From Candidatus Uhrbacteria bacterium (GTDB taxonomy: Bacteria > Patescibacteriota > Patescibacteriia > UBA9934 > GWF2-40-263), in contig JBAXQK010000001.1 of assembly GCA_037131775.1 (NCBI GenBank), positions 76,708 to 140,707 on the forward strand: a stretch of 64,000 bases of DNA, in the 5' to 3' direction. Below are positions 2,858 through 60,668 of the stretch, piece by piece. Below the pieces are notes generated by a model. It was not told the DNA's origin. It made no database searches and saw nothing but the letters and a program-made list of their open reading frames with translations. The position numbers and the translations under genes are program-made. Numbering within the stretch: position 1 is the stretch's first letter; each line of letters opens with the position of its first letter.

Positions 2858-2945
2858 GGTTGATTCTCCATGGGTCGTTCAGACCCGCATTGAGTGACAC
2901 GAGCAAGGAACAGACGGATGGCGAGGATACAGGAAAAATGGCCGT

Positions 2946-2974
2946 CTGTCAAGATACGGAGGCAGTGCTATAAT
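2946..2974 (+). promoter_or_regulatory. Sigma70-like promoter (CTGTCA-17-TGcTATAAT) giving an essentially leaderless transcript for the helicase-nuclease gene
   Basis: Extended -10 TGnTATAAT at 2966-2974, only 9 nt before the ATG at 2984. A -35-like CTGTCA lies 17 nt upstream. Confidence 0.45.
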
Positions 2975-2983
2975 GCGCCCACT

Positions 2984-5896
2984 ATGTCCGACCTCCTCCA
3001 AAACCTCAACCCGGAACAATCCGCCGCCGTGACGCACCGCGACGGGCCGCTTATGATCGTCGCCGGGGCCGGGACGGGGAAGACGACCGTGATTACGAAG
3101 CGGATCGCGTACCTGATCGAACAGGGACTGGCGAAGCCGGAGAATATCCTCGCGCTCACGTTTACGGACAAGGCAGCGGGCGAGATGGAGGAGCGCGTCG
3201 ATTGTCTTTTGCCGTACGGGTATCTTGAATTATCGATTTCGACGTTCCACGCGTTTTGCGAGAAGCTGCTGCGCGAATACGGCGTTGAGATCGGCCTGTC
3301 GCGCGACTTCCACGTTTCGTCGGAGCTCGACGCGTGGCTGCTTGCGCGTCGAAACCTCGAGCGATTCGAGCTCGATTATTATCGTCCGCTCGGGAACCCG
3401 ACGAAGTACCTGCGCGGCTTGCTTACGCATTTCTCGCGCGCCAAGGACGCAGCGATCGACCCGGCGGGGTATCTGGCGCATGCGAATGCTCGAAACGAAG
3501 CTAGCGGGACTAAAGTCCCTGGGAATCTTGATGAGACGGACGATGAAGCCGTCTCGGACATTAAGAGACTGACCGAGCTCGCCAACGGTTACAACACCTA
3601 TCAGTCGATTCTCCTCGAGAACGACACGCTCGACTTCGGCGACTTGCTCATGTACACGCTGAAGCTCCTCCGCGAGCGTCCGCGAGTCCTCGAGGCGCTG
3701 CGACGGCGGTACACCTACGTCCTCGTCGACGAGTTCCAGGATACGAACCTCACGCAGTACGAGATCGTCAAGCTGATCGCGGCTCCGCGGAACAATATCA
3801 CGATCGTGGGCGACGACGACCAGGCGGTGTACTCGTGGCGCGGGGCGACGATTGAGAATATCCTGACGTTTCAGACGGACTATCCGGACGCGAAGAAGAT
3901 CGTTCTGACGCAGAACTACCGGTCCGTCCAGAAGATCCTCGACCACGCGCACTCGTTCATCCAGGCGAACAATCCGCACCGGCTCGAGTCGATTGGTAAT
4001 CTCGACAAGAAGCTACAGTCCAATCGTACCGACGAGGGAATCGTCGGTCACATCCACGTGCCGACGCTCGATGAGGAGACCGAGGCCGTCGCCCAAAAAA
4101 TACTCGACCTACGTGTCGCGCATCCCGACATGAGCTGGAGCGACGTGGCCATTTTGTCGCGCTCGAACGATGCGGCCGTGCCGTTCCTCTCGACGATGGA
4201 GCGCCACGGGATCCCGTACCAGTTCATGGCCCTTCGCGGCCTGTACGCCAAGCCGATCGTCCTCGACCTCATGGCCTACCTCCGCGCCGTCGCGACTCCT
4301 CACGACAGCCCGTCGTTCTATCGCGTCCTCGCGCACCCGATGCACAACCTCCCGCATCTCGCCATCGCCGAGCTGTCGCAGTTCGCCAACCGAAAAGGGA
4401 AGTCGTTGTTCGACGCGTGCAACATGATTTTGGAGTTGAATACGATAAGTGCTCAAGCCATCGAGACGGTCCAGAACCTCCTTGTTCAGATCGAATCCTT
4501 CCGCCAGTCCGCCGCACACGGAAAGGTCTCAGAGCACTTCGTCAAAGTCGCCCGCGACGCCGGGTTCGTCGCGTTCGCCAACGATCTTCCCGAGCAGGAC
4601 AAGATGGACAACTTCCGCTATCTCCAACAGTTCTACGAGCGCCTCAAGCGGTTCGAGGCCTCGCACGACCATCCGATCCTCCGCAACTTCCTCGACGAGT
4701 TCCAGCAGGAGCTCGACGCGGGCGAGGAGGGATCGCTCACGTTCGATCCGGACGTCGGCCCGGACATGGTTCGCGTCATGACCGTCCACGCCTCGAAGGG
4801 CCTCGAGTTCCGCTTCGTGTTCGTCATCTCGATGATCGATCAACGCTTTCCGTCCGTGTCGCGCGCGGAGGCGATCTCGCTTCCAGACGGACTGACCGGA
4901 CCGTCGAAGTCGACGGACGGCGAAGACGACAAGCTCGCGCATCTCGAGGAAGAGCGCCGGTTGTTTTACGTCGCGATTACGCGCGCGAAGGAACAGCTCT
5001 ACCTCACGTCCGCCGACGACTACGGCGGATCGCGCAAGCGCAAGCTGTCGCGGTTCCTCACCGAGCTCGGGTTCGACAAGCCGGCCGGCCGAGACGCGAC
5101 GAAGGCCGACCCGTTCACCGACGACCCGTCCGTCCCGCCGCCGACCGCCGAAGCCCCAATCATCCACCTCCCAAAACAATTCTCCTTCACCCAACTCTCC
5201 GCCTTCAAAACCTGCCCGCTCCAATATAAATTCGCCCACGTCCTCAAAATCCCCGTCTTCGGAAAAGCCTCGTTCTCGTTCGGAAAGACCATGCACGAGA
5301 CGCTTCATCGTTACTTCGTCGAGTGGATGGACCAAGAATCGCCCGTCCCCCTCGACGATCTCTACCGGCTCTTCGACGAGAACTGGCAGGACGACTGGTA
5401 CGAGGACGATCTCGAACGCGAGAAGTTCCGCACGCAAGGCCGCGATCAGCTCAAAGCATTCTTCGACTTTCTCAAGGACCATCCGCCGGCTCCGGTGTAC
5501 CTCGAGCAAGACTTCACACTCAAGTTCGGCGACACTATCCTCAAGGGCCGCATCGACCGCATCGATACGGTCGAGGGCGGCGTCGAGATCATCGACTACA
5601 AGACGGGAACTCCGAAGGTCGACGGCAAGATCGACGCGTCCGACAAGGAACAGCTGTACCTCTACCAGATGGCCGCCCGCGACATCCTCGGTCTGAACGT
5701 CGTGAAACTCACCTACCACTATCTCCAGGACAACTCGCAGGTTTCCTTCATCGGCGACCCGGACGACCTGCTCAACCTCCAGGAAAAAATCCTCGACCGC
5801 GTGGACGGGATCAAGAAGAGCTCGTTCATCGCGACCCCGGGATTCCACTGCCAGTTCTGCGACTTCAAGGATATTTGCGAATTTAGACAACGTTAG
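2984..5896 (+). CDS. UvrD/PcrA-family SF1 helicase fused to a C-terminal PD-(D/E)xK nuclease with a Cas4/AddB-like Fe-S cysteine cluster (AddA-like helicase-nuclease)
   Basis: Walker A AGAGTGKT; UvrD motifs (TFT, DEFQDTN, QNYRS); C-terminal ...FKTCPLQYKF...IDYKTG...FHCQFCDFKDIC. Start taken at MSDLLQNLNPEQ. Confidence 0.8.
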   Translation: MSDLLQNLNPEQSAAVTHRDGPLMIVAGAGTGKTTVITKRIAYLIEQGLAKPENILALTFTDKAAGEMEERVDCLLPYGYLELSISTFHAFCEKLLREYGVEIGLSRDFHVSSELDAWLLARRNLERFELDYYRPLGNPTKYLRGLLTHFSRAKDAAIDPAGYLAHANARNEASGTKVPGNLDETDDEAVSDIKRLTELANGYNTYQSILLENDTLDFGDLLMYTLKLLRERPRVLEALRRRYTYVLVDEFQDTNLTQYEIVKLIAAPRNNITIVGDDDQAVYSWRGATIENILTFQTDYPDAKKIVLTQNYRSVQKILDHAHSFIQANNPHRLESIGNLDKKLQSNRTDEGIVGHIHVPTLDEETEAVAQKILDLRVAHPDMSWSDVAILSRSNDAAVPFLSTMERHGIPYQFMALRGLYAKPIVLDLMAYLRAVATPHDSPSFYRVLAHPMHNLPHLAIAELSQFANRKGKSLFDACNMILELNTISAQAIETVQNLLVQIESFRQSAAHGKVSEHFVKVARDAGFVAFANDLPEQDKMDNFRYLQQFYERLKRFEASHDHPILRNFLDEFQQELDAGEEGSLTFDPDVGPDMVRVMTVHASKGLEFRFVFVISMIDQRFPSVSRAEAISLPDGLTGPSKSTDGEDDKLAHLEEERRLFYVAITRAKEQLYLTSADDYGGSRKRKLSRFLTELGFDKPAGRDATKADPFTDDPSVPPPTAEAPIIHLPKQFSFTQLSAFKTCPLQYKFAHVLKIPVFGKASFSFGKTMHETLHRYFVEWMDQESPVPLDDLYRLFDENWQDDWYEDDLEREKFRTQGRDQLKAFFDFLKDHPPAPVYLEQDFTLKFGDTILKGRIDRIDTVEGGVEIIDYKTGTPKVDGKIDASDKEQLYLYQMAARDILGLNVVKLTYHYLQDNSQVSFIGDPDDLLNLQEKILDRVDGIKKSSFIATPGFHCQFCDFKDICEFRQR
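3506..3526. repeat. Family-2 palindromic element half/short copy (GGGACTAAAGTCCCTGGGAAT) in-frame inside the helicase gene
   Basis: Identical 21-mer to one arm of the full palindrome at 49642-49690. Encodes SGTKVPGN in the host frame. Confidence 0.6.
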
Positions 5897-12704: not shown

Positions 12705-14168
12705 ATGATCGAAGAGGAATCCGTTCGCCGATTGCGCCTGGAACGGCTGAAACTGGCGGGAAACGACCCCTATCCGGCTCGCGTCGAACGCACGCACACC
12801 GTGGCCAAGTTCGGCCAGCATTTTGATACGCTTCTTGCCGACATGACCGTCGTGACCATGGCCGGACGCATGCGCACCATCCGCAAGCACGGCGGGCTTA
12901 CGTTCGCGCAGCTTGAGGACGGATCAGGGACGATCCAGATCGCGCTTCGACGCGATCATCTTGGCGAGGAGACCTACGCGTTCTTCCATGACACGGCCGA
13001 CATGGGCGATTTCGTCGAGGCAAAAGGAGTCGCGTTCGTGACGAAGACGGGACAGCGGACGCTCGACGTCCAGTCGTATCGGATCATTACGAAGACGCTT
13101 TTGCCAATGCCGGAAAAGTGGCACGGCCTTTCCGATACCGAGATTCGCTATCGTCAGCGATACCTCGACCTGATCGCAAACGAGCAGGTCCGCTCGATCT
13201 TCAAGACGCGCGCAAAGATCGTCACGACCATTCGCGCGTATCTCGACCGCCACGGCTGCCTCGAGGTCGATACGCCGGTCCTGCAGATCGTCCCGGGCGG
13301 AGCGAGCGCCAGGCCGTTCCAGACGCATCACAACGCCCTCGACGCCGACATGTACCTCCGCGTCGCGCCGGAGCTGTATCTCAAGCGCTGCGTCGTCGGC
13401 GGATTCGAGCGCGTCTACGAGGTTGCCCGCTGCTTCCGCAACGAGGGGATCGACCACTCGCACAACCCGGAGTTCACGCAGGTGGAAGGCTACATCGCCT
13501 ACATGGATTACGAGCAGCTGATGGCCTTCCTCGAGGAAATGCTCCGCGAGGTGATCGTTGCCTGCGGGCTCGACCCGGCCGCGGTCCCGTTCAAGGGGAA
13601 CCTTTTGAACTTTGCCGACGCCTGGCCGCGCATCACCTTCCGCGACGCGATCCTTTCGCACGCGAAGATTGACATCGAGAACTATCCCGACCGCGATTCC
13701 ATCGCGAAGCAGGCCGCGAAGATGGGCGTGCCGGTCGCCACGACCGACGGACACGCGACGATCGTCGACAATATCTACAAGAACTTCGTCCGCCCGAACA
13801 TCGTCCAGCCGACGTATCTCATCGACTATCCGGTTGAGATCTCTCCGCTTGCCAAGCGCAAGACGGGCGATCCGCGATACGTCGAGATGTTCCAGCTTGT
13901 CTACGGCGGCGGCGTGGAAAACATCAAGGCGTTCTCCGAGCTGAACGACCCGCTCGACCAGGAGGAACGGTTCCGCCAGCAGCAGGCCGCGCGCGACGGC
14001 GGCGACGAGGAGGCGCAGTTCGGAGACGACGACTACGTGGTCGCGCTCAAGCACGGCATGCCGCCGACCGCCGGGTTCGGCATCGGCATCGACCGCCTTG
14101 CCGCCACGCTGACCGATTCGCACAACCTGAAGGAGGTCATCCTGTTCCCGACGCTCAAGCCGGTATGA
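12705..14168 (+). CDS. lysS: Lysyl-tRNA synthetase (class II)
   Basis: OB-fold N-domain. Class II motifs including FRNEG and the GxGxDR-like GIGIDR. Confidence 0.95.
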   Translation: MIEEESVRRLRLERLKLAGNDPYPARVERTHTVAKFGQHFDTLLADMTVVTMAGRMRTIRKHGGLTFAQLEDGSGTIQIALRRDHLGEETYAFFHDTADMGDFVEAKGVAFVTKTGQRTLDVQSYRIITKTLLPMPEKWHGLSDTEIRYRQRYLDLIANEQVRSIFKTRAKIVTTIRAYLDRHGCLEVDTPVLQIVPGGASARPFQTHHNALDADMYLRVAPELYLKRCVVGGFERVYEVARCFRNEGIDHSHNPEFTQVEGYIAYMDYEQLMAFLEEMLREVIVACGLDPAAVPFKGNLLNFADAWPRITFRDAILSHAKIDIENYPDRDSIAKQAAKMGVPVATTDGHATIVDNIYKNFVRPNIVQPTYLIDYPVEISPLAKRKTGDPRYVEMFQLVYGGGVENIKAFSELNDPLDQEERFRQQQAARDGGDEEAQFGDDDYVVALKHGMPPTAGFGIGIDRLAATLTDSHNLKEVILFPTLKPV

Positions 14169-19191: not shown

Positions 19192-20448
19192 TTATTCAAG
19201 CGGTGTGTGATCAAGATAGTTGAGCGGATTCACCGGGATGCCGTTTAACCGAACTTCGTAGTGCAGGTGCGCTCCGGTCGAAAGTCCCGCGCCCTGCATT
19301 CCAGGGACTCCGCCGGAAAGTCCGATCACCGTTCCGCGTCCGACGTACTCGTCCTGCTTTACGGCAAACTTCGATAGGTGGGCGTAGAGCGTCGCGATGC
19401 CGTCGGAGTGGATCACCATCACATAGTTGCCATACTGCGTTCCGGTCTTCGTCCAAGCCACGTATCCCGGCGCGGATGATTTTACCGGAGTGCCGAGCGG
19501 CGTCGGTATATCGATTCCCGGATGCTCGAACAGATGTCGGAACGGATAGGTCGGATCATGATAAAGCGTCGAGAGCCCCTTGTTCGGAGCCAACGGCCAT
19601 GAGATGACACTGCTCCCCTGCCCCGTATTGTCCAGAGTCGACAATTTGCGCTCAACCTCGCCCTGGAGGGCACCAATCTCCTGGCTGACGGACTGCTGTT
19701 CCGCGTGAATGCTTGATAAAAAACCCTGAAATGCGCTTTCCGTGCGCAGCGTTTGAGCGAGAAGAAACTGCTTTGCCTCCTTTTCCTCGTCGAGCTGACC
19801 CTTTTGGCGCAATTGGTCGGCCTGGAGATCGGCAAGGCGCGTGCGTTTTCCAACCTGCGCGGCACGGTCATTTATCACGGACGTACGCTCGGCCTCCGCG
19901 CGCGTCAGCGCGTTCTTCAGGTCTCCCGTGACGCTTGAAAGCTGCTGCAGTCGGTCGAACAGCTCGCCAAACGAATCCGAGCCGAACAGGAGCTGCAGCG
20001 TCATGTCGTTGTCATACGTGTCCATCTTGCGGAGAATGTCGCCAAGGGATGCACGGTCGAGTTCAAGCTGATGCTCGATCGCGTCGGCGCGGATCTGCAG
20101 AAGCTGGATCTCGTCGTTCGTGGCCGAGATGTCCTCGTCGGTAGCCGAGATGTCCAGTTCGGTCTTTGCCACGCGGTTGTCGAGCAATTCCATCTCGCTT
20201 ACGAGCGTCGCGCTCTGCGCCTCCGCATCGGCGATCTTTTTCTTGTACGTGGCCACGCTCCCGTTCAGCTTATCCACCTCCGCCTTCTTCTGCGCGATCT
20301 GATCGTTCAGGTCCGTGATCGTTCCTGCCGCCTTGGAATCGCTTACGGCGACGGTCGACGCCGAATCCGTCGTATCCGCGAACGCAAACCGCACGGCGAC
20401 AAACGTCGTGACCATCAGCACGGGGATGACGAAGAACAATTTTTTCAT
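19192..20448 (-). CDS. M23 (LytM) family peptidase with N-terminal signal peptide and long coiled-coil (EnvC-like)
   Basis: C-terminal ...GIDIPTPLGTPVKSSAPGYV...AHLHYEV matches the M23 HxH metal site. N-terminal heptad-rich region. Start taken at MKKLFFVIPVLMV. Confidence 0.8.
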   Translation of the reverse strand: MKKLFFVIPVLMVTTFVAVRFAFADTTDSASTVAVSDSKAAGTITDLNDQIAQKKAEVDKLNGSVATYKKKIADAEAQSATLVSEMELLDNRVAKTELDISATDEDISATNDEIQLLQIRADAIEHQLELDRASLGDILRKMDTYDNDMTLQLLFGSDSFGELFDRLQQLSSVTGDLKNALTRAEAERTSVINDRAAQVGKRTRLADLQADQLRQKGQLDEEKEAKQFLLAQTLRTESAFQGFLSSIHAEQQSVSQEIGALQGEVERKLSTLDNTGQGSSVISWPLAPNKGLSTLYHDPTYPFRHLFEHPGIDIPTPLGTPVKSSAPGYVAWTKTGTQYGNYVMVIHSDGIATLYAHLSKFAVKQDEYVGRGTVIGLSGGVPGMQGAGLSTGAHLHYEVRLNGIPVNPLNYLDHTPLE

Positions 20449-20460
20449 GTTGTCGATCTC

Positions 20461-20502
20461 GTTCCCCCTCCTCATAGGGAGGAGGGGTCAGGGGTAGTCG
20501 TC
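20461..20502. repeat. Family-1 palindromic element copy A, intergenic (between gltX stop and peptidase start)
   Basis: GTTCCCCCTCCTCATAGGGAGGAGGGGTCAGGGGTAGTCGTC. The core CCCCTCCTC-ATAGG-GAGGAGGGG is a perfect palindrome. Confidence 0.85.
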
Positions 20503-20509
20503 GCGCTTC

Positions 20510-21973
20510 CTAGAGCAACCCAATCGCACTTGCGAGCCTGCGCATCGTCTCATCCTTGCCAAGCGCCCACGCGAGCTCGAACGGGCTCGGGGATGCGGCA
20601 CGGCCGGACAATGCCACGCGGGTCGGCCAAAGGACATTTCCATTCGACAAGCCCTTTGCCTCAATATACGCCTTTATCGACGTTTCGACCATGGAGATCT
20701 CGTTCCAGACGCTCTCGTCGGCTATCGCGAGATGGTCGCGTACGCCCGCGAGGTTCGCCTTGCTGTCCGCCGCGTCCGCCTTCTTCCAAACGAGTATCGC
20801 CGGATCGTACGCGGGGACCGAGACGTATGCGTCGACGATCTCGACGATATCCGTAAGTCGCTCCATCCGCGTCTTCTCAATTGCGCAGATCTTTTCGAGC
20901 AGCGCCGCGTCGACCGTCTTCCCGGAAGCGTCGAGAAACGGACGGACGAGTGCGACGAGCTCCGACGCCGTTTTCTTCATGATGTACTGTCCGTTCATCC
21001 AGTTGAGCTTCGCCTGGTCGAATACCGCCCCAGACTTGTTGATCTTCGCCAGGTCGAACAGCTCGATCAGCTCGTCGATCGCATAGATCTCCTGGTCCGC
21101 CTTCGGGTTGAACCCGAGCAGCGCGACGAAATTGACGAGTGCTTCCGGAAGATATCCCTTCGCGAGATAGTCCTCGACCGCGACATCTCCCTGGCGCTTC
21201 GACAGCTTCGACTTGTCCGGATTGAGGAGGAGCGGCAGGTGAGCGAACAACGGCGCGTCCCAGCCGAACAGACGGTATAGGATGACGTGCTTCGGCGTGG
21301 ACGAGATCCATTCCTCGCCGCGAATGACGTGGGTGATCTTCATCAGGTGGTCGTCGACGACGACGGCCATGTGGTACGTCGGAAACCCGTCGGACTTGAT
21401 CAGAACCTGGTCGTCGACCTCCGCGTTGTTAATCGTAATCGTTCCCCGGATCACGTCCTCGAAGGAAGTCTCTCCTTCCGGGACTCGGAGGCGGAGAACA
21501 TGCGATTCTCCGGCGCCCAAGCGTCGTAAAACTTCCTCAGATGACAAGGATGCGCAGTGGCGATCGTACTTCGTCGACAGCTTGGCAATCTCCTGCTGCT
21601 TGCGAAGACCGTCGAGCCGCTCCGACGAGCAGAAACAGACGTACGCGACACCAGCGTCGAGAAGCTGTTTCGCGTATTGCGCGTAGATCGGAAGTCGCTC
21701 CGACTGGATGTACGGCCCAACGTCGCCGGTTTGCGCGATCACTCCGTCGACGAGCTTCGGACCCTCGTCCGGCAACAGGTTCACACGCTCGAACATCCGC
21801 AGAAGCGACTCGACAGCCCCAGGAACGAACCGCTCGCGGTCCGTGTCTTCTATGCGAAGGATATACGTCCCGGTTTGCTGACGAGCAAGCAAATAGTTGT
21901 ACAGCGCCGTGCGAAGACCGCCGACATGGAGAAAGCCTGTTGGAGACGGGGCGAAGCGGGTTCGAACGGACAT
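20510..21973 (-). CDS. gltX: Glutamyl-tRNA synthetase
   Basis: MSVRTRFAPSPTGFLHVGG (HIGH region) and KLSKR (KMSKS). Start taken at the internal Met. Confidence 0.95.
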   Translation of the reverse strand: MSVRTRFAPSPTGFLHVGGLRTALYNYLLARQQTGTYILRIEDTDRERFVPGAVESLLRMFERVNLLPDEGPKLVDGVIAQTGDVGPYIQSERLPIYAQYAKQLLDAGVAYVCFCSSERLDGLRKQQEIAKLSTKYDRHCASLSSEEVLRRLGAGESHVLRLRVPEGETSFEDVIRGTITINNAEVDDQVLIKSDGFPTYHMAVVVDDHLMKITHVIRGEEWISSTPKHVILYRLFGWDAPLFAHLPLLLNPDKSKLSKRQGDVAVEDYLAKGYLPEALVNFVALLGFNPKADQEIYAIDELIELFDLAKINKSGAVFDQAKLNWMNGQYIMKKTASELVALVRPFLDASGKTVDAALLEKICAIEKTRMERLTDIVEIVDAYVSVPAYDPAILVWKKADAADSKANLAGVRDHLAIADESVWNEISMVETSIKAYIEAKGLSNGNVLWPTRVALSGRAASPSPFELAWALGKDETMRRLASAIGLL

Positions 21974-21978
21974 AATTT

Positions 21979-22821
21979 CTATTTTCCCTTGAGTTGATTG
22001 ATAATTTCCGGAACCGTCGCGCGACACGCGGCGACGAACCGATGCCGCCTCAGTGTATCCCAGACGACGACCGCTGGGAAGACGATCGCGGCGTTGAAAA
22101 TCCGCTTGAATCGGCGCGGTTCGATGACGAGTCGCCAGACCCATTCGAGCCCGACGCGACGGACGAACAAGGGCGCGCGTCGCTTCGTCCCGGCAATCAT
22201 GTCGAAGGCGCCGCCGACGCCGATGTAGATGCGGGGTTGGTTAATTGGTAAATTGGCCAAATGGTCATGTGACGAACGAAGCGCCTCGATGAAACGTTCC
22301 TGCTTGCCCATGCCAAGCGCGACGGCGACGACGTCTGCATTTTCGAAGCTGGTGAGTTTCGTGCGGTCGCACGAAAGTGACCCGGTATGAGTTTTTTCGT
22401 TCGAGACGATTCCTACGTCGACGACCGTGACGTCGAGTCCCGCGAACTGCCGGCGCATCGATTCCGCCGCTGCTTCCGCGACGCCCGGGCCGCCGCCGAC
22501 GAGGACGAGGCGCTTCCCCTGCCCCGCGCAGAGCTTTGCGAGCAGCAAGAGAGTGTCGACGCCGGTATGACGGTTCGACAAACGGTTTCCCGTCAGCGCC
22601 GGAATCGCAAATCGGAGTCCCACGCCATCGGGCAAGGACAGATCCGCGCGATTCAACAGGTCGACGAACGACGGATCGCGTCGCGCGGCGAGGACGAACT
22701 CGGGGTTCGGGGTGACGATCGTATTCGACGAATCCGACGACAGCCACCCGGACAGAAGGTCCGTCAGCTCGCCTGTGGACAAGTCGGAAATACGCACGCC
22801 GAACAGTTCAAAAACTCTCAT
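21979..22821 (-). CDS. WecB/TagA/CpsF-family glycosyltransferase (GT26)
   Basis: The pattern ...TPNPEFV...DG.GL...G(x)nLVGG... resembles UDP-ManNAc(A) transferases. Start taken at MRVFELFGVRI. Confidence 0.7.
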   Translation of the reverse strand: MRVFELFGVRISDLSTGELTDLLSGWLSSDSSNTIVTPNPEFVLAARRDPSFVDLLNRADLSLPDGVGLRFAIPALTGNRLSNRHTGVDTLLLLAKLCAGQGKRLVLVGGGPGVAEAAAESMRRQFAGLDVTVVDVGIVSNEKTHTGSLSCDRTKLTSFENADVVAVALGMGKQERFIEALRSSHDHLANLPINQPRIYIGVGGAFDMIAGTKRRAPLFVRRVGLEWVWRLVIEPRRFKRIFNAAIVFPAVVVWDTLRRHRFVAACRATVPEIINQLKGK

Positions 22822-25593: not shown

Positions 25594-27003
25594 ATGAAAC
25601 GGCGCCTTTTGCTTTGCTCCCTCATCGGTCTCGTGGCATTTTCCTCAATGCCGGCGCCCGTTTTCGCGTACGACTTCGTGCCGAACTACGTCATTTCCGA
25701 CGCGGAGATGACCGATGTCTCCAGCATGACCCAGGCACAAATCCAGGCATTCCTCGACGCGTACGGCACGCTCGGCTCACGTTCGTTCGAGGACGTAGAC
25801 GGTTCCGTTCGAACCTCCGCGGAAATCATCTATAACGCGGCCAATCGCAATCGAATAAGTCCGCGGGTGATCCTTGTCACGCTTCAGAAGGAACAGAGCC
25901 TGATCGACGACACGAGCCCGAAGCAGAGCCAACTCGACTGGGCGATGGGATACGGGATCTGCGACAGTTGCAACCACGAGACGGAAGCGGCCCAGCGTTT
26001 TCGAGGATTCGCAAAGCAGGTGAACTCCGCGACGCTTCAGTTCGGCGAAGGCTACATGGCCGACCTCGCCGCGTTCGGAAAGACGCTCGCGGGATACGGC
26101 CCCGGCGTGACCGTCGCCGTCGACGACATCCTCCTCACTCCCGCGAACAACGCCACCGCCGCGCTCTACACCTACACTCCGCACACGCACGGCAACGAGA
26201 ATTTCTCCAAGCTCTGGCAACGCTGGTTCACGCACGACTATCCGGATGGAACGCTTCTCCAAAACACGGAGGACGGCGGCGTCTGGCTCATCCAGTACGG
26301 CATGCGCCGACCCATCACGTCCCGTGCCGCGCTCCTCACGCGCTTCAACGAGAAGGCGATCGTCCCGGTCACGTCCACGTCGCTCGCCGTATTCCCCATG
26401 GGGCGTGCAATTTCGCTGCCGAACTATTCCCTGCTCCAGTCCCCAAAGGGAACGGTCTACCTCCTCGTGGACGACTCGATCCGAGGGTTCGTTTCCCGCG
26501 AGGCGATGCGCGCCACCGGACTGAACCCTGAGGATGCGATCGACGTCTCGTTCGACGATCTTGCCACGTACAGGGAAGGCTCGCCGATCACGAGCGACAG
26601 CGTTTATCCGCAGGGCGCGCTCCTTCAGGACACGAGGACCGGCGGCGTCTACTTCGTTGAGAATGGGTCGAAGTCGGCGATCATGTCCCGCGAGATCATG
26701 AGCACAAAATTTAAAAGCCTCGCGATCCAACCGGCGGAAGCGGGCGAGCTCGACGCGTATCCGACGGTCGACCCCGTCCCGTTCCCGGACGGCACCCTGA
26801 TCAGTCCAAACGGCAGGTCGGATATCTACGTAGTTTCCGGTGGAAAGCGCCTCCCGATCCCCAACGGCGAGACGTTCCTGTCCTACGGGTGGAACTGGGA
26901 CCAGGTCATCAAGACGAACGACCGATCGATCGACATTCTCCCGCTTGGTGATCCGATCGAGCCAATTCAGGCGATCGAGCCCAATGACACGCAATCCCTA
27001 TGA
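25594..27003 (+). CDS. Secreted hypothetical protein with four tandem ~45-aa repeats (GxVYLV..G.R..I.S.E...)
   Basis: Signal peptide. Four degenerate repeats: GGVWLIQYGMRRPITSRAAL, GTVYLLVDDSIRGFVSREAM, GGVYFVENGSKSAIMSREIM, SDIYVVSGGKRLPIPNGETF. Confidence 0.4.
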   Translation: MKRRLLLCSLIGLVAFSSMPAPVFAYDFVPNYVISDAEMTDVSSMTQAQIQAFLDAYGTLGSRSFEDVDGSVRTSAEIIYNAANRNRISPRVILVTLQKEQSLIDDTSPKQSQLDWAMGYGICDSCNHETEAAQRFRGFAKQVNSATLQFGEGYMADLAAFGKTLAGYGPGVTVAVDDILLTPANNATAALYTYTPHTHGNENFSKLWQRWFTHDYPDGTLLQNTEDGGVWLIQYGMRRPITSRAALLTRFNEKAIVPVTSTSLAVFPMGRAISLPNYSLLQSPKGTVYLLVDDSIRGFVSREAMRATGLNPEDAIDVSFDDLATYREGSPITSDSVYPQGALLQDTRTGGVYFVENGSKSAIMSREIMSTKFKSLAIQPAEAGELDAYPTVDPVPFPDGTLISPNGRSDIYVVSGGKRLPIPNGETFLSYGWNWDQVIKTNDRSIDILPLGDPIEPIQAIEPNDTQSL

Positions 27004-27785
27004 TCGTCTTCGCCGCATTCACGCCGCATACACCGCTACTCCTTCCGCCAATCGGCAAGGATGCCCTTCAAAAATTGTCGTCAACGACCGATGCCATGGA
27101 TCGGCTCGGCGACGAGCTTCGCGAGGCGCGGCCAGACACGATCGTGATTATCTCCGCCCATGCCACCCAGCATGACGGCGCCTTTTCGGCGAACCTGCAC
27201 GACTCGTATCTCGTCGACCTCCGCGACTTCGGCGACCTGACGACTACCGCCGAGTTCGAGCCGAACCTTTCGCTCATCGACGCGATCCAGCGCGCGGTTC
27301 GTCGCGCGCAAATCCCCTTCACCCTCGACTCGGACTCGACGCTCGACTACGGTACCGCCGTTCCCCTCGTCGCGATCGGCGCCAGGGCGCAGATCGTCCC
27401 GATCTCCTTCAGCAATCTTCCTGCGAAGGATCACTTCTCGTTCGGCAAGGCGCTCAAGGACGTGCTTGCGAATCGCAAGGAACGCATCGCGATCGTCGCG
27501 TCCGGCGACCTGTCGCACGCGCTTACTTCAGACGCTCCGGCCGGCTATCGACCGGAGGGCGAGACGTTCGACTCGGCCGTCCGCCAGGCGGTCGTCCAGG
27601 CGAGCGCCTCCCAGCTGCTAACACTCGACGAGGAAACCGTCGAGAAGGCCGAGGAGTGCGCCTATCGCCCCCTGCTCGTCCTGTTTGGAATCCTCGACCA
27701 AGTTCCGACGGTTCCGGAGGTACTCTCCTACGAGCACCCGTTCGGCGTCGGCTACCTCGTGGCCCAGTTCCATCTTGGAAGTTAA
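27000..27785 (+). CDS. LigB-family (class III extradiol dioxygenase / YgiD-DODA-like) protein
   Basis: Conserved blocks resemble YgiD: ...TIVIISAHA..., ...ASGDLSHAL..., ...YRPLLVLFGIL.... Confidence 0.6.
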   Translation: MIVFAAFTPHTPLLLPPIGKDALQKLSSTTDAMDRLGDELREARPDTIVIISAHATQHDGAFSANLHDSYLVDLRDFGDLTTTAEFEPNLSLIDAIQRAVRRAQIPFTLDSDSTLDYGTAVPLVAIGARAQIVPISFSNLPAKDHFSFGKALKDVLANRKERIAIVASGDLSHALTSDAPAGYRPEGETFDSAVRQAVVQASASQLLTLDEETVEKAEECAYRPLLVLFGILDQVPTVPEVLSYEHPFGVGYLVAQFHLGS

Positions 27786-27880: not shown

Positions 27881-29803
27881 GTGATTGCCGAAGTTTATCC
27901 AATCAAGCGGATGCCGCGCCGGTTCGACGTCTTCGACTATGAGATCCCGACCGGCATGAATCTCGCACGAGGATCCGGCGTCCGGATCCCGTTTCGGTTC
28001 GGAGAGATGCGCGGAATCGTCGCGCGAGTCACGGACGGTGCGGGACGTGGAAAGACGATCAAGCCCGTCTCGGCGATCCTGCCGGACCTTTCGATGACCG
28101 ACGACGAGCTCTCCTGCTTCGAGGACGTCGCGTTCGATACCGCGCAAAGCGTCTCGGCCGTCCTCCACGCGACGATCCCGATTCCGGGGAAACGCGACGT
28201 TTCGTCCGCCCGTCGATCCCTCAGCGTTCCCCCTCCTCATAGGGAGGAGGGGTCAGGGGTGGTCGTCTCGCCCCTCACGATCTCCGCCCGCGAGGCCCCG
28301 CAAATCTCTCAGATTGTCGCGGAACTCTCCGAGCGATCCGAGGCATTCGTCGCCATCCCCGACCTCAAGCGCGCCGCCGTCCTCATCGCGACCTACCGCC
28401 GCGACCACCCGACCGAACCCGTCCTCGTCCTCGCGCCGAACGTTCGCGATGCACGCCTCATCGCGTCCCGACTCTCTTACGTTTCCCCTCCTCATAGGGA
28501 GGAGGGGTCAGGGGTGGTCGTCGTGACCGGCGAGGAGTCTCCGGCCGAGCGTTTTCGCCGCTGGAAGCTCTGGCGCGGCCGAAGGACCGGCCTCCTCGTC
28601 GGCTCCCGCGTCGCGGCTCTCTGGACCCATCCGACGCTCGGCGCGGTATTCCTCGTACGCTCGGGACACCCCAACCATAAGCAGGACGACCGAAACCCAC
28701 GCTTCGACGCGCGATTCGTGGGACAGGTTCTCCATGGGCGACTTTCCGCCAAGCGCTTTCACCTAGACGTCATGCCAAGCACCGAGGACCTCGTTGGATT
28801 CGGCGCGGCAAATCTCCTCGGCCCGACCGCCCGTCCCGAAACGATCATCGCCGACATGACGATCGAGCGCGCCGGTTCCCCGCACCCGTGCCTCGGCAAC
28901 AGCCTTGTCATCGAGATCGCCCAGACACTCGCCGAGAACCGGCGCGTCATCTGCGCGTACAATCTCAAGGGCGTGTCGCGACGATTGCAATGCGCCGACT
29001 GCGGACACCGGTTTCCGTGCGAGAACTGCGGCGGAGTGCTCGCACCGTACGTGACGACGGTCCAATGCCACCGATGCGGTCGGACCGAGCCGCTGCCGGC
29101 CTCTTGTCCCGCATGCCATAAGAACAAGCTCACGCCGAAGGGATTTGGAAACCGCGCGGTCGCCGCGGCATTGCAGTCGGCGTTTCCCGAGGCGACCGTC
29201 GCATGCCTCGATCGCGATACGGACGTGGACGGCGCGAAGGACGCGGACATTCTCGTCGTCACGCGCCATTACGTCGAGAACGTCTTCGACCCCTTTCACC
29301 CACCGGACGTCGGTCTCGTCGCTGAGCTTGATGGGGACCGGTCCTTGTTCGAGCCGTCCTACCGTGCCCTCGAGAAATCCCTCCTTAACGCCGAGGAGTG
29401 GCGCGGAATTGCCCACGCCTGCCGCGCCAAGTTCCTCATCCAGACCGAGATGCCCGATTTGTTCCGCAACGCCCTCTCGCAGCCGGAAAAAGCCCTTCTC
29501 GACGACCTCGCCATCCGCAAGTCCTACGCCCAGCCCCCGTATGTCCGCGCCATGACCGTCGAATTCAAGCCCGACGAGCCAGGCGAACAGGCCCAAGGAA
29601 TCGCCAAGGCCATCGAAGCGATCCGCGCCGTCTCCACGTCGACCGAGATTTCGAAGCTCCCCTCTCCTTCCAAAGGAGAGGGTCAGGGTGAGGTCTACGC
29701 CCGTATCCGCCTCGCCGTCCCCCCGTCCGACGAGCTTGCCGTTCTCCAGGCCTTTTCCCCGTTCGACGACTCGTATATCATTGACACAAGGCCGTTAGAA
29801 TGA
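27881..29803 (+). CDS. priA: Primosomal protein N' (PriA)-like, with Cys4 zinc-binding domain but no recognisable Walker A/B motifs (GTG start)
   Basis: N-terminal 3'-DNA-binding-like domain. PriA-like blocks (VLVLAPNV..., RRWKLWRGRRTGLLVGSRVAAL) and CADCGH...CENCGG...CHRCG...CPAC. The positions where GxGKT and DEEH are expected read IPDLKRAA and RSGH. Confidence 0.65.
   Translation: MIAEVYPIKRMPRRFDVFDYEIPTGMNLARGSGVRIPFRFGEMRGIVARVTDGAGRGKTIKPVSAILPDLSMTDDELSCFEDVAFDTAQSVSAVLHATIPIPGKRDVSSARRSLSVPPPHREEGSGVVVSPLTISAREAPQISQIVAELSERSEAFVAIPDLKRAAVLIATYRRDHPTEPVLVLAPNVRDARLIASRLSYVSPPHREEGSGVVVVTGEESPAERFRRWKLWRGRRTGLLVGSRVAALWTHPTLGAVFLVRSGHPNHKQDDRNPRFDARFVGQVLHGRLSAKRFHLDVMPSTEDLVGFGAANLLGPTARPETIIADMTIERAGSPHPCLGNSLVIEIAQTLAENRRVICAYNLKGVSRRLQCADCGHRFPCENCGGVLAPYVTTVQCHRCGRTEPLPASCPACHKNKLTPKGFGNRAVAAALQSAFPEATVACLDRDTDVDGAKDADILVVTRHYVENVFDPFHPPDVGLVAELDGDRSLFEPSYRALEKSLLNAEEWRGIAHACRAKFLIQTEMPDLFRNALSQPEKALLDDLAIRKSYAQPPYVRAMTVEFKPDEPGEQAQGIAKAIEAIRAVSTSTEISKLPSPSKGEGQGEVYARIRLAVPPSDELAVLQAFSPFDDSYIIDTRPLE
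28226..28267. repeat. Family-1 palindromic element copy B, in-frame in priA-like gene
   Basis: GTTCCCCCTCCTCATAGGGAGGAGGGGTCAGGGGTGGTCGTC encodes VPPPHREEGSGVVV. Confidence 0.9.
28481..28522. repeat. Family-1 palindromic element copy C, in-frame in priA-like gene
   Basis: GTTTCCCCTCCTCATAGGGAGGAGGGGTCAGGGGTGGTCGTC encodes VSPPHREEGSGVVV. Confidence 0.9.
29659..29695. repeat. Diverged family-1-like palindromic element (variant 3) in-frame near priA C-terminus
   Basis: CCCCTCTCCTT-CCA-AAGGAGAGGG-TCAGGGTGAGGTC: same architecture (palindrome plus TCAGGG(G)TG(R)GGTC tail) and same frame, encoding PSPSKGEGQGEV. Confidence 0.6.
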
Positions 29804-29822: not shown

Positions 29823-30296
29823 ATGATCGTCCTCACGAATCCAAACCCCGAACTTCGCGTCCGATCCGTCGAGATTCCCTCGTCGGACATTGCTTCGGAT
29901 CGTCTCAAGGAGATGATCGTCGAACTGAAGAGGACGATGAGGGAGGAAAACGGCTGCGGGATCGCCGCGCCGCAAGTTGGGATCCACGAGCGCGTGATCA
30001 TCGTCGACGACGGTTCGGGCCCGAAGGCATACATCAACCCGGAGATCGTCTCAAAATCGTTCGCCACGTTCCTGTTCGAGGAGGGATGCCTGTCCGTACC
30101 GGGCGTCTGGGGCATGGTCAAGCGGCACAAGTCCGTGAAGGTCACGGCGATCGGAGAGGACGGCAAGCCCGTAAAGATCTCCGGGAAGGGACTCCTATCC
30201 GTCATCTTCCAGCACGAGATCGACCACCTCAACGGCGTCCTGTTCATTGACTCGGTCCAGAAGATCACCCGCATGCCGAACAACTCCATCCTATGA
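29823..30296 (+). CDS. def: Peptide deformylase
   Basis: GIAAPQVG, EGCLSVPG and QHEIDHLNG metal-site motifs. Confidence 0.9.
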   Translation: MIVLTNPNPELRVRSVEIPSSDIASDRLKEMIVELKRTMREENGCGIAAPQVGIHERVIIVDDGSGPKAYINPEIVSKSFATFLFEEGCLSVPGVWGMVKRHKSVKVTAIGEDGKPVKISGKGLLSVIFQHEIDHLNGVLFIDSVQKITRMPNNSIL

Positions 30297-31237
30297 TTCG
30301 CATTGCGTTCTTTGGAACCCCGGAGTTTTCCGTCCCATTCCTAACGGCCCTCGTCGACGACCCCGCATTCGAGGTCGTCGCTGTCGTTTCGCAGCCCGAT
30401 CGACCGCAGGGCCGCAACCACGAGATTGTCCCGACCCCGGTCAAATCCGTCGCGCTCGACCATCAAATCCCGGTCCTTCAGCCGACGACGCTGCGCGACG
30501 AGTCCGTCCTTGCGACCCTTCTGGCGCTCAATGCCGACTATTTCGTCGTCGTCGCCTACGGAAAAATCATCCCGCAGGCCGTCCTCGACGTCCCGCGCCT
30601 CGGCTGCGTCAACGTCCATCCTTCCCTTCTGCCGAAGTATCGCGGCCCGTCCCCTATGAACTGGGCGATCGCGGAGGGCGACGCGAAGACCGGGGTGACA
30701 ATCATGCTGCTTGACGCGGGAATGGACACCGGCCCGATCCTGTCGCAGACGAGCATCGGCTTGGACTCGGACGAGACAATGGATACGCTCATGGCCAAGG
30801 CACACGAACAGGGCGTCCCGCTCCTGATCGATACGCTCAAGCGGTTCGCGACCGGCGAGATCGTCCCCGTCGCGCAAAACGACGAGGCCGCGACGATGAC
30901 GAAGCTGCTCGACCGCGAAGACGGCCGCATCGACTGGACGCTTCCCATGGAGGTGATCGAACGGCGCTTGCGAGCCTACCAGCCCTGGCCCGGACTCTGG
31001 ACCGTGTGGATGCGAAACGGCGTCGAGACGCGCATCAAGATCCATTCCCTCCAACCGTCCGACTTCCGCGCCGACCTTCCGCCCGGAACCGTCTCAACGA
31101 AAAACAGCCGACTGCACGTCGACTGTTCGGACGGGACGATCGAAATACTGGAACTGCAGCCGGAGGGAAAGCCGCGCATGTCCGCGGAAGCATTCCTCCT
31201 CGGCTATTCCGACGTGAACGGTGCCATGCTTGGCTGA
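30293..31237 (+). CDS. fmt: Methionyl-tRNA formyltransferase
   Basis: Formyltransferase N-domain (FFGTPEFS...HPSLLPKYRG) and C-terminal domain. Overlaps def by 4 nt. Confidence 0.9.
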   Translation: MIRIAFFGTPEFSVPFLTALVDDPAFEVVAVVSQPDRPQGRNHEIVPTPVKSVALDHQIPVLQPTTLRDESVLATLLALNADYFVVVAYGKIIPQAVLDVPRLGCVNVHPSLLPKYRGPSPMNWAIAEGDAKTGVTIMLLDAGMDTGPILSQTSIGLDSDETMDTLMAKAHEQGVPLLIDTLKRFATGEIVPVAQNDEAATMTKLLDREDGRIDWTLPMEVIERRLRAYQPWPGLWTVWMRNGVETRIKIHSLQPSDFRADLPPGTVSTKNSRLHVDCSDGTIEILELQPEGKPRMSAEAFLLGYSDVNGAMLG

Positions 31238-53064: not shown

Positions 53065-54169
53065 TCCCGCCGCCGATCATCTCCTCGCCGTCGTAGATCA
53101 CGATCGACTGTCCGGACGTGACGGCGCGGACAGGGTCGTCGAACTCGACGGTGATCTGCTCCGTGTCGACCACCCCTGACCCCTCCTGCCTATCAGGAGG
53201 GGAAACTTGGGTGGGGGGGACTTGGGTGATGGAGACGATCGTGCACGCTTGCAGCGGTTGGCGATAGCGGACGCGGGCGGAGAGCTTTTCTCCGACGACG
53301 GGGCGACGGAACCAGTTCGTAGACGTCGCGACGAGTTTCTTTTCAAACAACGCCGGATGAAAATTGCTCGAGACGATGAGCTGCTTCGTCTCGGGTTTTT
53401 TGTCGACCACGTAATACGGCGTTCCTCCCCCGACGTTCAGGCCGTGGCGCTGACCGATCGTATAGAACGCGACCCCCTCGTGCGTACCCACCACTTCCCC
53501 GCCCGTCGTGACGATCTCGCCCGGATCCTCCGGAATCCGTTCCTTCAAGAACTCACGGATGTCGACTTCCCCAACGAAACAAATCCCCGTCGAATCCTTC
53601 TTCTCCGCCGTCGACAACCCAAGCTCGCGCGCCTTCTCGCGAACCTCAGGCTTCGTCATCGCGCCGACCGGAAACAACAAGCGCGGCAGCACGGCCTTTG
53701 GGATCGCCCAGAGAAAGTACGTCTGGTCCTTGTTATCGTCGGAACCGGCGAGGATCCGGCCGTCGACGATCCGCGCATAATGCCCAGTCGCGACGAACGC
53801 GCAGCCGAGACGGTCCGCCTCTTTGACGAACAGGTCGAACTTTACGTACTTATTGCACAGCACGTCGGGATTCGGCGTCCGTCCCGCCGCGTACTCCTGA
53901 TACAGATTCTCGACGACGAGGTCGCGATACTGCTTCTCGAAGTCGAACGTGACGAACGGAATCCCAAGCTTCGCCGCCACCCGCATCGCGTCACGCCGCT
54001 CGGTGCGCCAGCCGCACTCCTTCGTCTCTCCATCGCACTTGATCTCCGTCCAGTTCTTCATGAACGCCCCGATCACCTCGTACCCCTGCTCCAACAGCAA
54101 CGCCGCGGCCACGGACGAATCCACGCCGCCGGACATGCCGAGAAGAACTTTCTTGGGAGCTTCTTCCAT
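53054..54169 (-). CDS. mnmA: tRNA-specific 2-thiouridylase MnmA, with an in-frame family-1 element near the C-terminus
   Basis: PP-loop VLLGMSGGVDSSVAA. Catalytic cysteines. Start taken at MEEAPKKVLLG. Confidence 0.9.
   Translation of the reverse strand: MEEAPKKVLLGMSGGVDSSVAAALLLEQGYEVIGAFMKNWTEIKCDGETKECGWRTERRDAMRVAAKLGIPFVTFDFEKQYRDLVVENLYQEYAAGRTPNPDVLCNKYVKFDLFVKEADRLGCAFVATGHYARIVDGRILAGSDDNKDQTYFLWAIPKAVLPRLLFPVGAMTKPEVREKARELGLSTAEKKDSTGICFVGEVDIREFLKERIPEDPGEIVTTGGEVVGTHEGVAFYTIGQRHGLNVGGGTPYYVVDKKPETKQLIVSSNFHPALFEKKLVATSTNWFRRPVVGEKLSARVRYRQPLQACTIVSITQVPPTQVSPPDRQEGSGVVDTEQITVEFDDPVRAVTSGQSIVIYDGEEMIGGGIIV
53168..53206. repeat. Family-1 palindromic element copy E (variant 2: CCCCTCCTG-CCTAT-CAGGAGGGG), in-frame in mnmA
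   Basis: GACCACCCCTGACCCCTCCTGCCTATCAGGAGGGGAAAC encodes (minus strand) VSPPDRQEGSGVV. Confidence 0.9.
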
Positions 54170-59013: not shown

Positions 59014-60668
59014 ACGGGAAGGTTCGGGGGAATACCGTCGTCGACCCATCCTGGCGGCGGTCCGGGGAGCTCAACGTCGGCGGGAGGACCCATGTCAACC
59101 GCGTCGAGCCCGTCCTCGCCTTCCTCGTCAGGAGTAAACTGATGCGCGGATGCGGGAGCCTCGGACGGTTCCATTCCAGGCAGCCGGATTTCCGGCTCCT
59201 GCGCCGTTTCATGCGATTGAACGTGCGAACCATGGTCCTCATGCGCACCGCCCCCATGCGACTCCGCCACTCCACCCTGGTGCGCGGACAAAACCGGGGC
59301 ATGCGCGGAAACCGGCATGCGGGTCGGCATCGAGTGATGGTCGACGTCGTCGGATCCAATCGGCAGGCCAACCGGCGGCTCGGCGCGCTTGGCGTCGGCC
59401 TTCTTCACGAGCGGCGCCTTCACCGTGATCGACGGGAAATGCCACAGCGTGGCAAGCTCCTCGATGTTGAGCGTCCATGCTTCCGCGCCAATTCCCCATG
59501 ATCGGTTGCGGAACGCGCGAACGAGTCTCCCTTGCCTGGTGGCATACGTCCATGCCTGCCAGAAATAGTCGTCCTTCGGCGTTGCATCGCCGTGCAATCC
59601 GAGCGAGTTCATGTTCAGGTGCGCGAACTGGTTGAACATCCCCTTTACGAACGCGGTGCGGGCCTGCTTGTCGTACACGCCCTTCTTTCCAATGTACACC
59701 AGTCGCATCTTGGTCTTGAATCCCACCTTGCCGATCTTCTTGAGAACGCCCTCAACCTGCTCTTTCTCGGCCATGGTAATCTTGAACGCCTTCCACATGT
59801 CTGGATCCTGCGCCGGCTTCGCATGTGGGTCCGCCGCCGTGGAAAACCCAAACGCTTCCATCGCGATGTCCGCCGGAATCGAGAGCGTGTTGCTGATCAA
59901 GTTTTCAAACATCCCCGGCTTGTGCTTTGCCTCGTTGCCGAACACTTTGTTGATAAAGTCCTCGCCCGCCTTCTTCCAGTCGTTCCCGTTCGGCTTGATA
60001 ATGATTTGAATCCAAAAGTGCTCGCCGACCTTCATTTTTGCCAATTGTTCCAAAATCGGTCCGAGCGGATCCTTCAGCTCGCCGGAAATCTTGTCCTCGA
60101 AGTCGGTATACGTGCGCAACGGAAAAATTTCCGGTTTCTTCAGGATAAGCTCGCTTCCCCACGTATCCCAGGTATCGTTCGGATATTCTCCCGGAGCCCA
60201 GGATGCATAGTCCTCGACTTCGGTTATTTCCGCTTCCGGATATGCCGCGTAGATGCCCGCCTCAACGACGTCGCGATACCGGGTTTGCACTCGCACGTAA
60301 TACTGGACATAGCCCTCGGTCGACACGATCTCGAACGAGAACGGAGACTGAAACTTTCCAATGATCCACTTTTCCTTCCAGGTCAGGTTCGAATACGATC
60401 CCCAAAGCGAGGAGAACATGTTCTCGAGCGCCTTCGGGGTCTGCTCCGTCATGGGAGGAACGTCGATCGCCAGCAGAGCGAATTTGAGCGAGGCCGCGTA
60501 CTTTTCCTGACGGGTGACCTCCCAAACTTTAGTGATTCCCCACAATATCGTAATAACGATTGGGACCCATCCAAACCAAACGAGTATATCGTAGAGAACC
60601 ACGTCGATGGGTTGGTTCCAGAACAGCGGCGACGAAAGGGACGCAATGATGGATGCGGCGAAGAACAT
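59010..60668 (-). CDS. Hypothetical membrane protein (N-terminal TM helices, large extracytoplasmic domain, His-rich acidic C-terminal tail), translationally coupled to the T4CP-like gene
   Basis: Start at MFFAASIIASLSS... The only strong AAAGGAGGT seen in the window lies upstream. ATGA overlap with the downstream gene. C-terminus HGGGAHEDHGSHVQSHE. Confidence 0.4.
   Translation of the reverse strand: MFFAASIIASLSSPLFWNQPIDVVLYDILVWFGWVPIVITILWGITKVWEVTRQEKYAASLKFALLAIDVPPMTEQTPKALENMFSSLWGSYSNLTWKEKWIIGKFQSPFSFEIVSTEGYVQYYVRVQTRYRDVVEAGIYAAYPEAEITEVEDYASWAPGEYPNDTWDTWGSELILKKPEIFPLRTYTDFEDKISGELKDPLGPILEQLAKMKVGEHFWIQIIIKPNGNDWKKAGEDFINKVFGNEAKHKPGMFENLISNTLSIPADIAMEAFGFSTAADPHAKPAQDPDMWKAFKITMAEKEQVEGVLKKIGKVGFKTKMRLVYIGKKGVYDKQARTAFVKGMFNQFAHLNMNSLGLHGDATPKDDYFWQAWTYATRQGRLVRAFRNRSWGIGAEAWTLNIEELATLWHFPSITVKAPLVKKADAKRAEPPVGLPIGSDDVDHHSMPTRMPVSAHAPVLSAHQGGVAESHGGGAHEDHGSHVQSHETAQEPEIRLPGMEPSEAPASAHQFTPDEEGEDGLDAVDMGPPADVELPGPPPGWVDDGIPPNLPV

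Follow-up and report, generated by a model that had tools for sequence, protein, structure and literature searches.

A PriA orthologue of Candidatus Uhrbacteria without helicase motifs, encoded by a gene that hosts in-frame palindromic elements

The window analysed here, a stretch of 64,000 nucleotides (64 kb) from a contig of Candidatus Uhrbacteria to which all coordinates refer, carries a priA-like gene whose product, a probable pseudohelicase, has every ATPase and helicase motif of canonical PriA replaced. The protein starts with GTG in the window and with ATG in its orthologues, and the N-terminus MIAEVYPIKRMPRR is common to both. Directly downstream lie def and then fmt (Table 1); the same priA-def-fmt order, a widespread and classic gene arrangement, is found around the orthologues P0002 and P0004. 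Because of this position, together with the Pfam, NCBIfam and PDB sequence matches described below, we identify the open reading frame (ORF) as a Ca. Uhrbacteria bacterium's own priA, orthologous to that of other bacteria; the host is a member of the Patescibacteria or Candidate Phyla Radiation (CPR). The gene also contains three short palindromic elements, all in frame.

Table 1. Features of the priA-like gene and its downstream neighbours.
Feature	Coordinates	Strand	Description
priA-like coding sequence	27881..29803	+	640 aa, GTG start; Pfam, NCBIfam and PDB matches, alignments
3'-end-binding domain (3'BD)	27881..28180	+	residues 1-100; PF17764, alignment to 4nl4
Variable linker replacing the winged-helix domain	28181..28285	+	residues ~101-135; pLDDT 49-67; hosts element 1
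Palindromic element 1	28226..28267	+	type A, 42 nt; 9-bp stem, 5-nt loop, tail GGGGTCAGGGGTGGTCGTC; in frame, encodes VPPPHREEGSGVVV
Former helicase lobe 1	28286..28825	+	residues ~136-315; RecA-like fold kept in model
Former Walker A (motif I) site	28346..28378	+	FVAIPDLKRAA, residues 156-166; family consensus PDL[KR]R
Palindromic element 2	28481..28522	+	type A, 42 nt; 9-bp stem, 5-nt loop, tail GGGGTCAGGGGTGGTCGTC; in frame, encodes VSPPHREEGSGVVV
Former Walker B (motif II) site with equivalent of the aromatic and basic loop	28640..28714	+	GAVFLVRSGHPNHKQDDRNPRFDAR, residues 254-278
Cysteine-rich region (CRR)	28991..29116	+	C371/C374, C380/C383, C396/C399, C409/C412; two zinc ions expected
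Former motif VI	29393..29419	+	EEWRGIAHA, residues 505-513; arginine fingers lost
Palindromic element 3	29657..29695	+	type B, 39 nt; different 10-bp stem, tail GGGTCAGGGTGAGGTC; in frame, encodes LPSPSKGEGQGEV
def	29823..30296	+	peptide deformylase; directly 3' of the priA-like gene
fmt	30293..31237	+	methionyl-tRNA formyltransferase; third gene of the priA-def-fmt order

The homology to PriA, claimed in an initial annotation made from the sequence, is borne out by domain, family, structural and fold matches. PriA_3primeBD (PF17764) is the sole Pfam domain above its threshold, with 39.6 bits against a cut-off of 22.7 over residues 16-100; the Zn_ribbon_PriA model scores below threshold. The NCBIfam priA models match with E-values of 1e-38 to 1e-36, every score being far under the equivalog cut-off (126 bits versus 230 for TIGR00595, 131 versus 813 for NF004066). 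In a sequence search of the PDB, the closest solved relatives are the PriA proteins of K. pneumoniae and E. coli (E about 4e-26). An AlphaFold2 (AF2) model built on 42 family members has a mean pLDDT of 89.4 and a pTM of 0.88, and its nine top Foldseek matches in the PDB are all PriA chains, the best being E. coli PriA 8fak_H (TMq 0.73, E 8e-36) and the second 6dcr, an E. coli PriA engineered to lack its winged-helix domain. Two RecA-like lobes and a C-terminal domain keep the PriA arrangement in the model: the RecA-like fold is thus predicted to be retained without its P-loop.

The initial annotation had also held that DNA-binding and zinc-binding parts are kept, which is true of the 3'BD and the zinc-binding region. 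In E. coli, the pocket that receives the 3' end is formed by D17, Y18, G37 and K61 (PMC5778457). Residues D19, Y20 and K61 of the window protein stand opposite D17, Y18 and K61, R39 stands opposite G37, and F18, D19, Y20 and K61 are near-invariant in the family. All eight cysteines of the CRR are present, each in at least 90% of family members, and the C-terminal domain is retained as well. The segment HKQxDRNPRFDAR, which follows the former motif II, is the retained counterpart of the aromatic and basic loop that contacts DNA at the fork junction in canonical PriA (PMC5778457); within it, N272-P273-R274 is invariant and R278 nearly so. What is missing is the winged-helix (WH) domain: a low-confidence linker of ~30 residues takes its place, canonical PriA having some 70-100 residues more.

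Catalytic motifs were compared in a 23-sequence alignment that includes canonical PriAs and in another of ~200 sequences, which agree on the replacements. Motif I (Walker A), GVTGSGKT in canonical PriA, reads AIPDLKRA; motif II (Walker B), DEEH, reads VRSG at a site placed identically by HMMER and MAFFT; motif III changes from GSATP to LDVMPS, motif V from GTQM.AKG to VTRHYVEN, and motif VI from Q..GRAGRG to EEWRGIAHA. The spans that cover the first two sites, AFVAIPDLKRAAVL (residues 155-168) and LGAVFLVRSGHPNHKQDD (residues 253-270), are present as initially quoted, as are the other strings given then, among them the four CxxC pairs. Profile, pairwise and multiple alignments all confirm the claim that no GKT or DExH stands at the motif positions, and these positions align without gaps or changes of frame. 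The losses go beyond those first described, extending to the WH domain, motif III and motif VI.

The motifs have not moved elsewhere in the protein either: a regular-expression scan of all 640 residues found no [AG]x4GK[ST] and no DExH/D. A stray GKT does occur at residues 57-59; we rejected it as a relocated P-loop, for its spacing is wrong, its place is a loop within the 3'BD and it is unconserved, the family majority being G-I-K. The 'HGKT' strings of five distant relatives were likewise rejected as P-loops, being found at another position and aligned to VVTGEE. Elsewhere in the window, at 2894-5893 (+), a 1000-aa protein combines UvrD-helicase, UvrD_C and PD-(D/E)XK nuclease domains (AddA/PcrA-like) with strong AAA/helicase domain matches; with this UvrD/AddA-type helicase-nuclease intact, there is no general erosion of ATPase motifs across this genome.

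A profile search of 1.84 billion representative sequences, one per cluster at 50% identity, returned 18,105 matches. Among the best 150 of these (E <= 6e-89, about 550-650 aa), not one has a P-loop at the motif I position, and NPR[FY]DAR or a close variant occurs in all 150. The consensus of Uhrbacteria at the old motif sites is PDL[KR]R and RSGHPNHKQ; family-wide, the sequences conserved there are PDL[KR]R and RSGHPNHKQxDRNPRFDAR. More than 180 diverse relatives, down to ~30% identity, share the motif-less state and belong to Ca. Uhrbacteria, Ca. Falkowbacteria and other Patescibacteria; a second search, started from the distant member P0170, gave a Falkowbacteria/Patescibacteria clade of 31 proteins that also lack motifs I, II and VI. 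Among the more distant family members, acidic residues survive at the Walker B site, as in IIDEEAEDDYKQ and LDDEES, and some Falkowbacteria-type proteins have them too. One Saccharimonadales PriA, on the other hand, has GETGSGKT, DEAH and GRVGR, so that the motif loss marks a subset of Patescibacteria and not the whole radiation. The same protein type is encoded at all 21 genome loci collected, of which those with a name are Candidatus Uhrbacteria or 'Patescibacteria group'.

Two observations were made along the way. Eight third-party metagenome-assembled genomes (MAGs; L006, L008, L011, L013, L016, L020, L022 and L023) are titled 'uncultured Gammaproteobacteria bacterium' and encode a motif-less PriA of the Uhrbacteria type at 31-56% identity; the titles of these records are probably wrong taxonomically. 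P0228, a motif-less PriA-like protein of 897 aa and of the Falkowbacteria type, has an additional HD-domain match (PF01966), so that a phosphohydrolase may have been fused to the dead PriA scaffold in it.

The replacement motifs, in which Arg, Lys and His abound, show the degree of conservation usual for catalytic motifs. They might therefore form a site of their own between the lobes, with PDL[KR]R, RSGHPNHKQ and NPR.DAR binding or hydrolysing a nucleotide or other phosphate ligand, and the protein would then be an atypical motor or switch. Such a site would suit the acidic Walker B-site residues of the distant members, and E. coli PriA has been proposed to possess another, weaker site for nucleotides (PMC5778457). 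We nevertheless consider this explanation unlikely. No P-loop, DExH or arginine finger is present, and NPR.DAR corresponds to the DNA-contacting loop of canonical PriA, a role that explains its conservation. Hydrolysis of ATP without motif I would also lack a precedent in helicase superfamily 2 (SF2), since we know of no SF2 helicase capable of it.

Alternatively, the protein could be a neofunctionalised derivative of PriA that works beside an intact restart helicase encoded elsewhere (a second priA, or a Rep- or RecG-like enzyme), and that is not the initiator of restart in this cell. Our view of the genome spans 64 kb, beyond which a second, intact priA could lie; some Patescibacteria, namely Saccharimonadales, do have a canonical PriA, and the window itself encodes the intact UvrD/AddA-type helicase. 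However, the gene occupies the ancestral priA-def-fmt position both here and in related genomes, and no canonical PriA from Uhrbacteria was among the homologue matches. CPR genomes are small, and paralogues of replication genes are rarely kept in them. An intact restart helicase next to this protein is thus, in our judgement, improbable.

The initial annotation had offered, as one of two readings of the insertions and lost motifs, relaxed constraint in the former helicase core, a view that the substitution pattern contradicts. The ratio of nonsynonymous to synonymous substitution rates (dN/dS), calculated by the Nei-Gojobori method for the window priA against four close orthologues, is 0.10-0.14 for the whole gene, 0.05-0.10 for the 3'BD, 0.11-0.20 for lobe 1, 0.00-0.07 for lobe 2 and the CRR, 0.21-0.28 for the C-terminal domain and 0.27-0.66 for the linker. 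Given the low values in lobes 1 and 2, the former helicase core is under strong purifying selection, and new conserved motifs stand at its old sites.

By the same token, it is very improbable that the gene is a decaying priA remnant, a pseudogene in progress whose constraint is relaxed and whose insertions are symptoms. Every catalytic motif is indeed gone, three insertions have accumulated within 1.9 kb, and the linker and C-terminal domain evolve faster than the rest. Yet the frame of 640 codons is intact, the fold is predicted with confidence, and both the architecture and the replacement motifs persist throughout the relatives described above; family conservation and dN/dS have already largely refuted decay. 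The insertions, for their part, all preserve the frame, fall on low-confidence stretches of the model and belong to a repeat family that also enters clearly essential genes, mnmA and, in a relative, fmt. Altogether, the loss of motifs is a conserved state, neither decay nor an assembly error.

The three palindromic insertions first noticed in the initial annotation are real and recent in-frame insertions of a lineage-specific repeat family. The window holds seven copies of the element, against none expected. The core of type A matches six times where none is expected by chance; type B, to which the third priA copy belongs, is a distinct subfamily that has the GGGTCAGGG(G)TG tail in common with type A. 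The hairpins are stable: their energies are near -10 kcal/mol and their z-scores lie between -2.8 and -4.6. Six of the seven copies lie inside genes, all in sense orientation and in one frame, V[PS]PP[HD]R[EQ]EGSGVV, the hosts being priA (three copies), a GT4 glycosyltransferase gene, mnmA and a VirD4/TraG-like ATPase gene. The seventh, at 20465-20503 (+), is intergenic, in the short spacer that separates gltX (20513-22144, -) from an M23 peptidase gene (19195-20475, -). An ORF on the + strand, 19939-20856, was considered as its host and dismissed as spurious: its GC content by codon position is that of non-coding DNA (GC3 0.54), and it has no Pfam match.

How recent the insertions are can be read from a DNA alignment of four orthologous priA genes that are 79-93% identical (the window, L001, L003 and L004). 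Site 1 holds a type A element in the window and a type B element in L001, which implies that this linker was entered more than once, independently; L003 and L004 have nothing there. At site 2 an element is present in the window and in L003, and L001 and L004 lack one; at site 3 the window and L001 have an element, L003 and L004 none. Neither terminal inverted repeats nor target-site duplications could be recognised in this alignment: the GTCGTC beside the right end of the element occurs at empty sites too, and the net change of length at site 2 is 27 nt, not 42. A further type B copy lies at 4664-4695 of L024, in the corresponding N-terminal part of priA (a partial match, residues 1-198), and the 90%-identical relative L001 has one in frame in fmt (13117-13148). 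The more distant Uhrbacteria loci L006-L023 have no elements. From their presence in close relatives and absence there, we conclude that the expansion of the repeat is recent and confined to this lineage.

Outside these loci, fourteen further exact copies of type A were found, all from the metagenome Ga0194060 (L026-L037), some of which appear intergenic. Those with a clear coding-type host frame use all three stop-free frames of the element, and a single fixed reading frame was accordingly rejected as a rule of the family. Within the window, the copies at 53164-53206 (-, mnmA) and 57309-57351 (-, VirD4/TraG-like) are of type A and have in common a compensatory stem change, a C-G pair turned into G-C (CTC...GAG to CTG...CAG); either the hairpin as such may be maintained, or the two copies may form a sub-lineage. 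The second of these hosts, at 56782-59070 (-), encodes a 763-aa homologue of TrwB/VirD4/TraG-type coupling proteins with the element in frame, and adjoins a 672-aa ORF (59013-61028, -) without Pfam match; the two might belong to an apparatus for type IV secretion or DNA uptake.

The model of the protein is of low confidence just where the three elements lie, at residues 101-130, 201-210 and about 591-610. Element 2 is placed in lobe 1, between the helix 188-198 and the strand 212-215, and element 3 in the C-terminal domain, between the strands 589-594 and 606-613. The insertions are tolerated in these stretches between secondary-structure elements and are not a sign of decay. That they were tied to the decay of the helicase, as once suggested, is not supported: just one of the three is in a RecA lobe, and the repeats are equally found in the mnmA, GT4 and VirD4-like genes and in the fmt of a relative.

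Metagenomic origin, a GC-rich source and repeats inside the gene could in principle have made the missing motifs an artefact of assembly, frameshift or gene calling, an explanation that is now refuted and scarcely conceivable, since the identical protein P0001 comes from JGI, ENA and GEM sources, its 90%-identical orthologue is on 18 contigs, and the motif state is the same at 21 genome loci in ungapped, frame-true alignment.

We therefore return to the reading that we favour, and hold to be probable: the protein is a priA-derived pseudohelicase that acts as an ATPase-dead scaffold for fork recognition and helicase loading. In this mechanism, the 3'BD would read the 3' end of the nascent leading strand, and the rigid two-lobe body, with its basic and aromatic loop, the CRR and the C-terminal domain, would bind branched DNA. 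Abandoned forks or D-loops would be recognised by their structure, and the protein would be a passive platform to which DnaB, the replicative helicase, is recruited either directly or via a loader, without ATP-driven unwinding. Two precedents support it. The E. coli allele priA300 (K230R) is devoid of ATPase, helicase and translocase activity, and is almost wild-type and supports the PriA-PriB pathway (PMC5778457). PriA of D. radiodurans does not hydrolyse ATP or unwind DNA; it binds forks, as well as single-stranded DNA, and DnaB (PMC4504706).

Several points weigh against this reading. We infer the lack of ATPase activity from the sequence alone, and a restart scaffold without helicase activity, one of two options raised in the initial annotation, is to that extent a favoured interpretation in which fork and DnaB binding are likewise deduced; DnaB itself and any loader are presumed partners. 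The residue aligned with G37 of the E. coli pocket is R39 here, and 3'-end recognition may differ as judged from this substitution. The missing WH domain contributes to fork binding in E. coli. The new conserved basic and His residues in the former cleft (PDL[KR]R, RSGHPNHKQ) might accommodate a nucleotide, or some other ligand, in a non-canonical manner, and to these points the possible second priA outside the window must be added.

A further-reaching proposal is possible, though we regard it as doubtful: that whole lineages of Patescibacteria (Uhrbacteria, Falkowbacteria and relatives, over 180 clusters at 50% identity) depend on a PriA that is obligately ATPase-dead and WH-less and in which the former nucleotide cleft has been rebuilt as a new conserved surface, PDL[KR]R / RSGHPNHKQ, with a new role. 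If true, this surface might, for example, dock DnaB or another partner directly, or bind phosphate or DNA, and nature would have produced in this protein a minimal PriA, one by which the helicase-independent core of replication restart is defined.

Upstream of priA, a LigB-family gene (extradiol dioxygenase / Memo-like) occupies 27000-27785 (+) and is preceded, at 25594-27003 (+), by a gene for a 469-aa protein that has a hydrophobic, signal-peptide-like N-terminus and no Pfam match. Both genes are likewise in synteny with priA in L001, L003 and L004, which are close relatives. A search of the 64-kb window with Rfam (at the gathering threshold) and a tRNA scan gave no match.

A PriA pseudohelicase was already known in Deinococcus-Thermus; what is new is the loss of motifs I, II, III and VI and of the WH domain in Patescibacteria. 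Literature searches that combined PriA with Candidate Phyla Radiation or Patescibacteria gave no report of such a loss; the one match that looked relevant, PMC10849945, concerns the phylum UBP6. This would be a second, presumably independent and more radical loss in PriA, fixed under purifying selection in diverse bacteria of reduced genome. It offers a natural experiment that could tell which parts of PriA fork recognition and helicase loading require, and a compact scaffold for structural work. For annotation it is a warning, as motif-less PriAs either fall under equivalog cut-offs or receive helicase labels. The in-frame hairpin repeats, in turn, represent selfish DNA resembling the palindromic elements of Rickettsia within essential genes of a CPR lineage.

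Compared with canonical PriA of E. coli and K. pneumoniae (4nl4, 6dgd, 8fak), the window protein has the same 3'BD with the D/Y/K residues of the pocket, RecA-like lobes, eight-cysteine CRR, C-terminal domain, basic and aromatic loop after motif II and priA-def-fmt context, with a TM-score of 0.73. It differs in having no WH domain and in the replacement of motifs I, II, III, V and VI; it is ~20% identical, about 130 residues shorter once the insertions are subtracted, and under every NCBIfam equivalog cut-off.

The window protein resembles, in a more extreme form, the D. radiodurans pseudohelicase (Lopper et al. 2015, PMC4504706), likewise a PriA orthologue under selection, with degenerate Walker A and B motifs. 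Fork and DnaB binding without ATPase or helicase activity were demonstrated there, and we infer them for the window protein. In Deinococcus-Thermus, a recognisable P-loop stays in place, GKT having become GRT (PMC4504706), whereas it is wholly replaced here; the window protein also lacks motifs III and VI and the WH domain, and has new conserved motifs at the old sites. As the phylum is a different one, the losses in the two groups are presumably independent.

Among E. coli variants, priA300 (K230R) is alike in being ATPase- and helicase-dead while supporting primosome assembly and restart, and serves as a functional model for a scaffold-only PriA (PMC5778457); it differs as a laboratory point mutant whose helicase core is otherwise intact and which depends on PriB and DnaT. 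The delta-WH construct of 6dcr has the same set of domains as the window protein (3'BD, lobes, CRR and C-terminal domain, no WH) but is engineered and catalytically intact. Actinobacterial PriA (PRK14873 models) is of similar length, and NF011453 is the one NCBIfam model that aligns nearly end to end, over residues 10-575; with 86 bits against a cut-off of 812, the window protein is not a member. A UniProt note reportedly describes M. tuberculosis PriA as lacking detectable helicase domains. Literature searches found no statement on the motifs of mycobacterial PriA; actinobacterial PriA may be another motif-poor group.

For the repeats, with their architecture of a hairpin plus a conserved G-rich tail, the closest analogy is provided by the Rickettsia palindromic elements (RPE) and intragenic MITE/REP-like repeats (PMC10969869). 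These too are short palindromes inserted in frame into unrelated housekeeping genes, where they add a conserved peptide to a host protein that apparently remains functional. The Rickettsia elements are about 150 bp long (PMC10969869), as opposed to 39-42 nt here, are unrelated in sequence and belong to another phylum.

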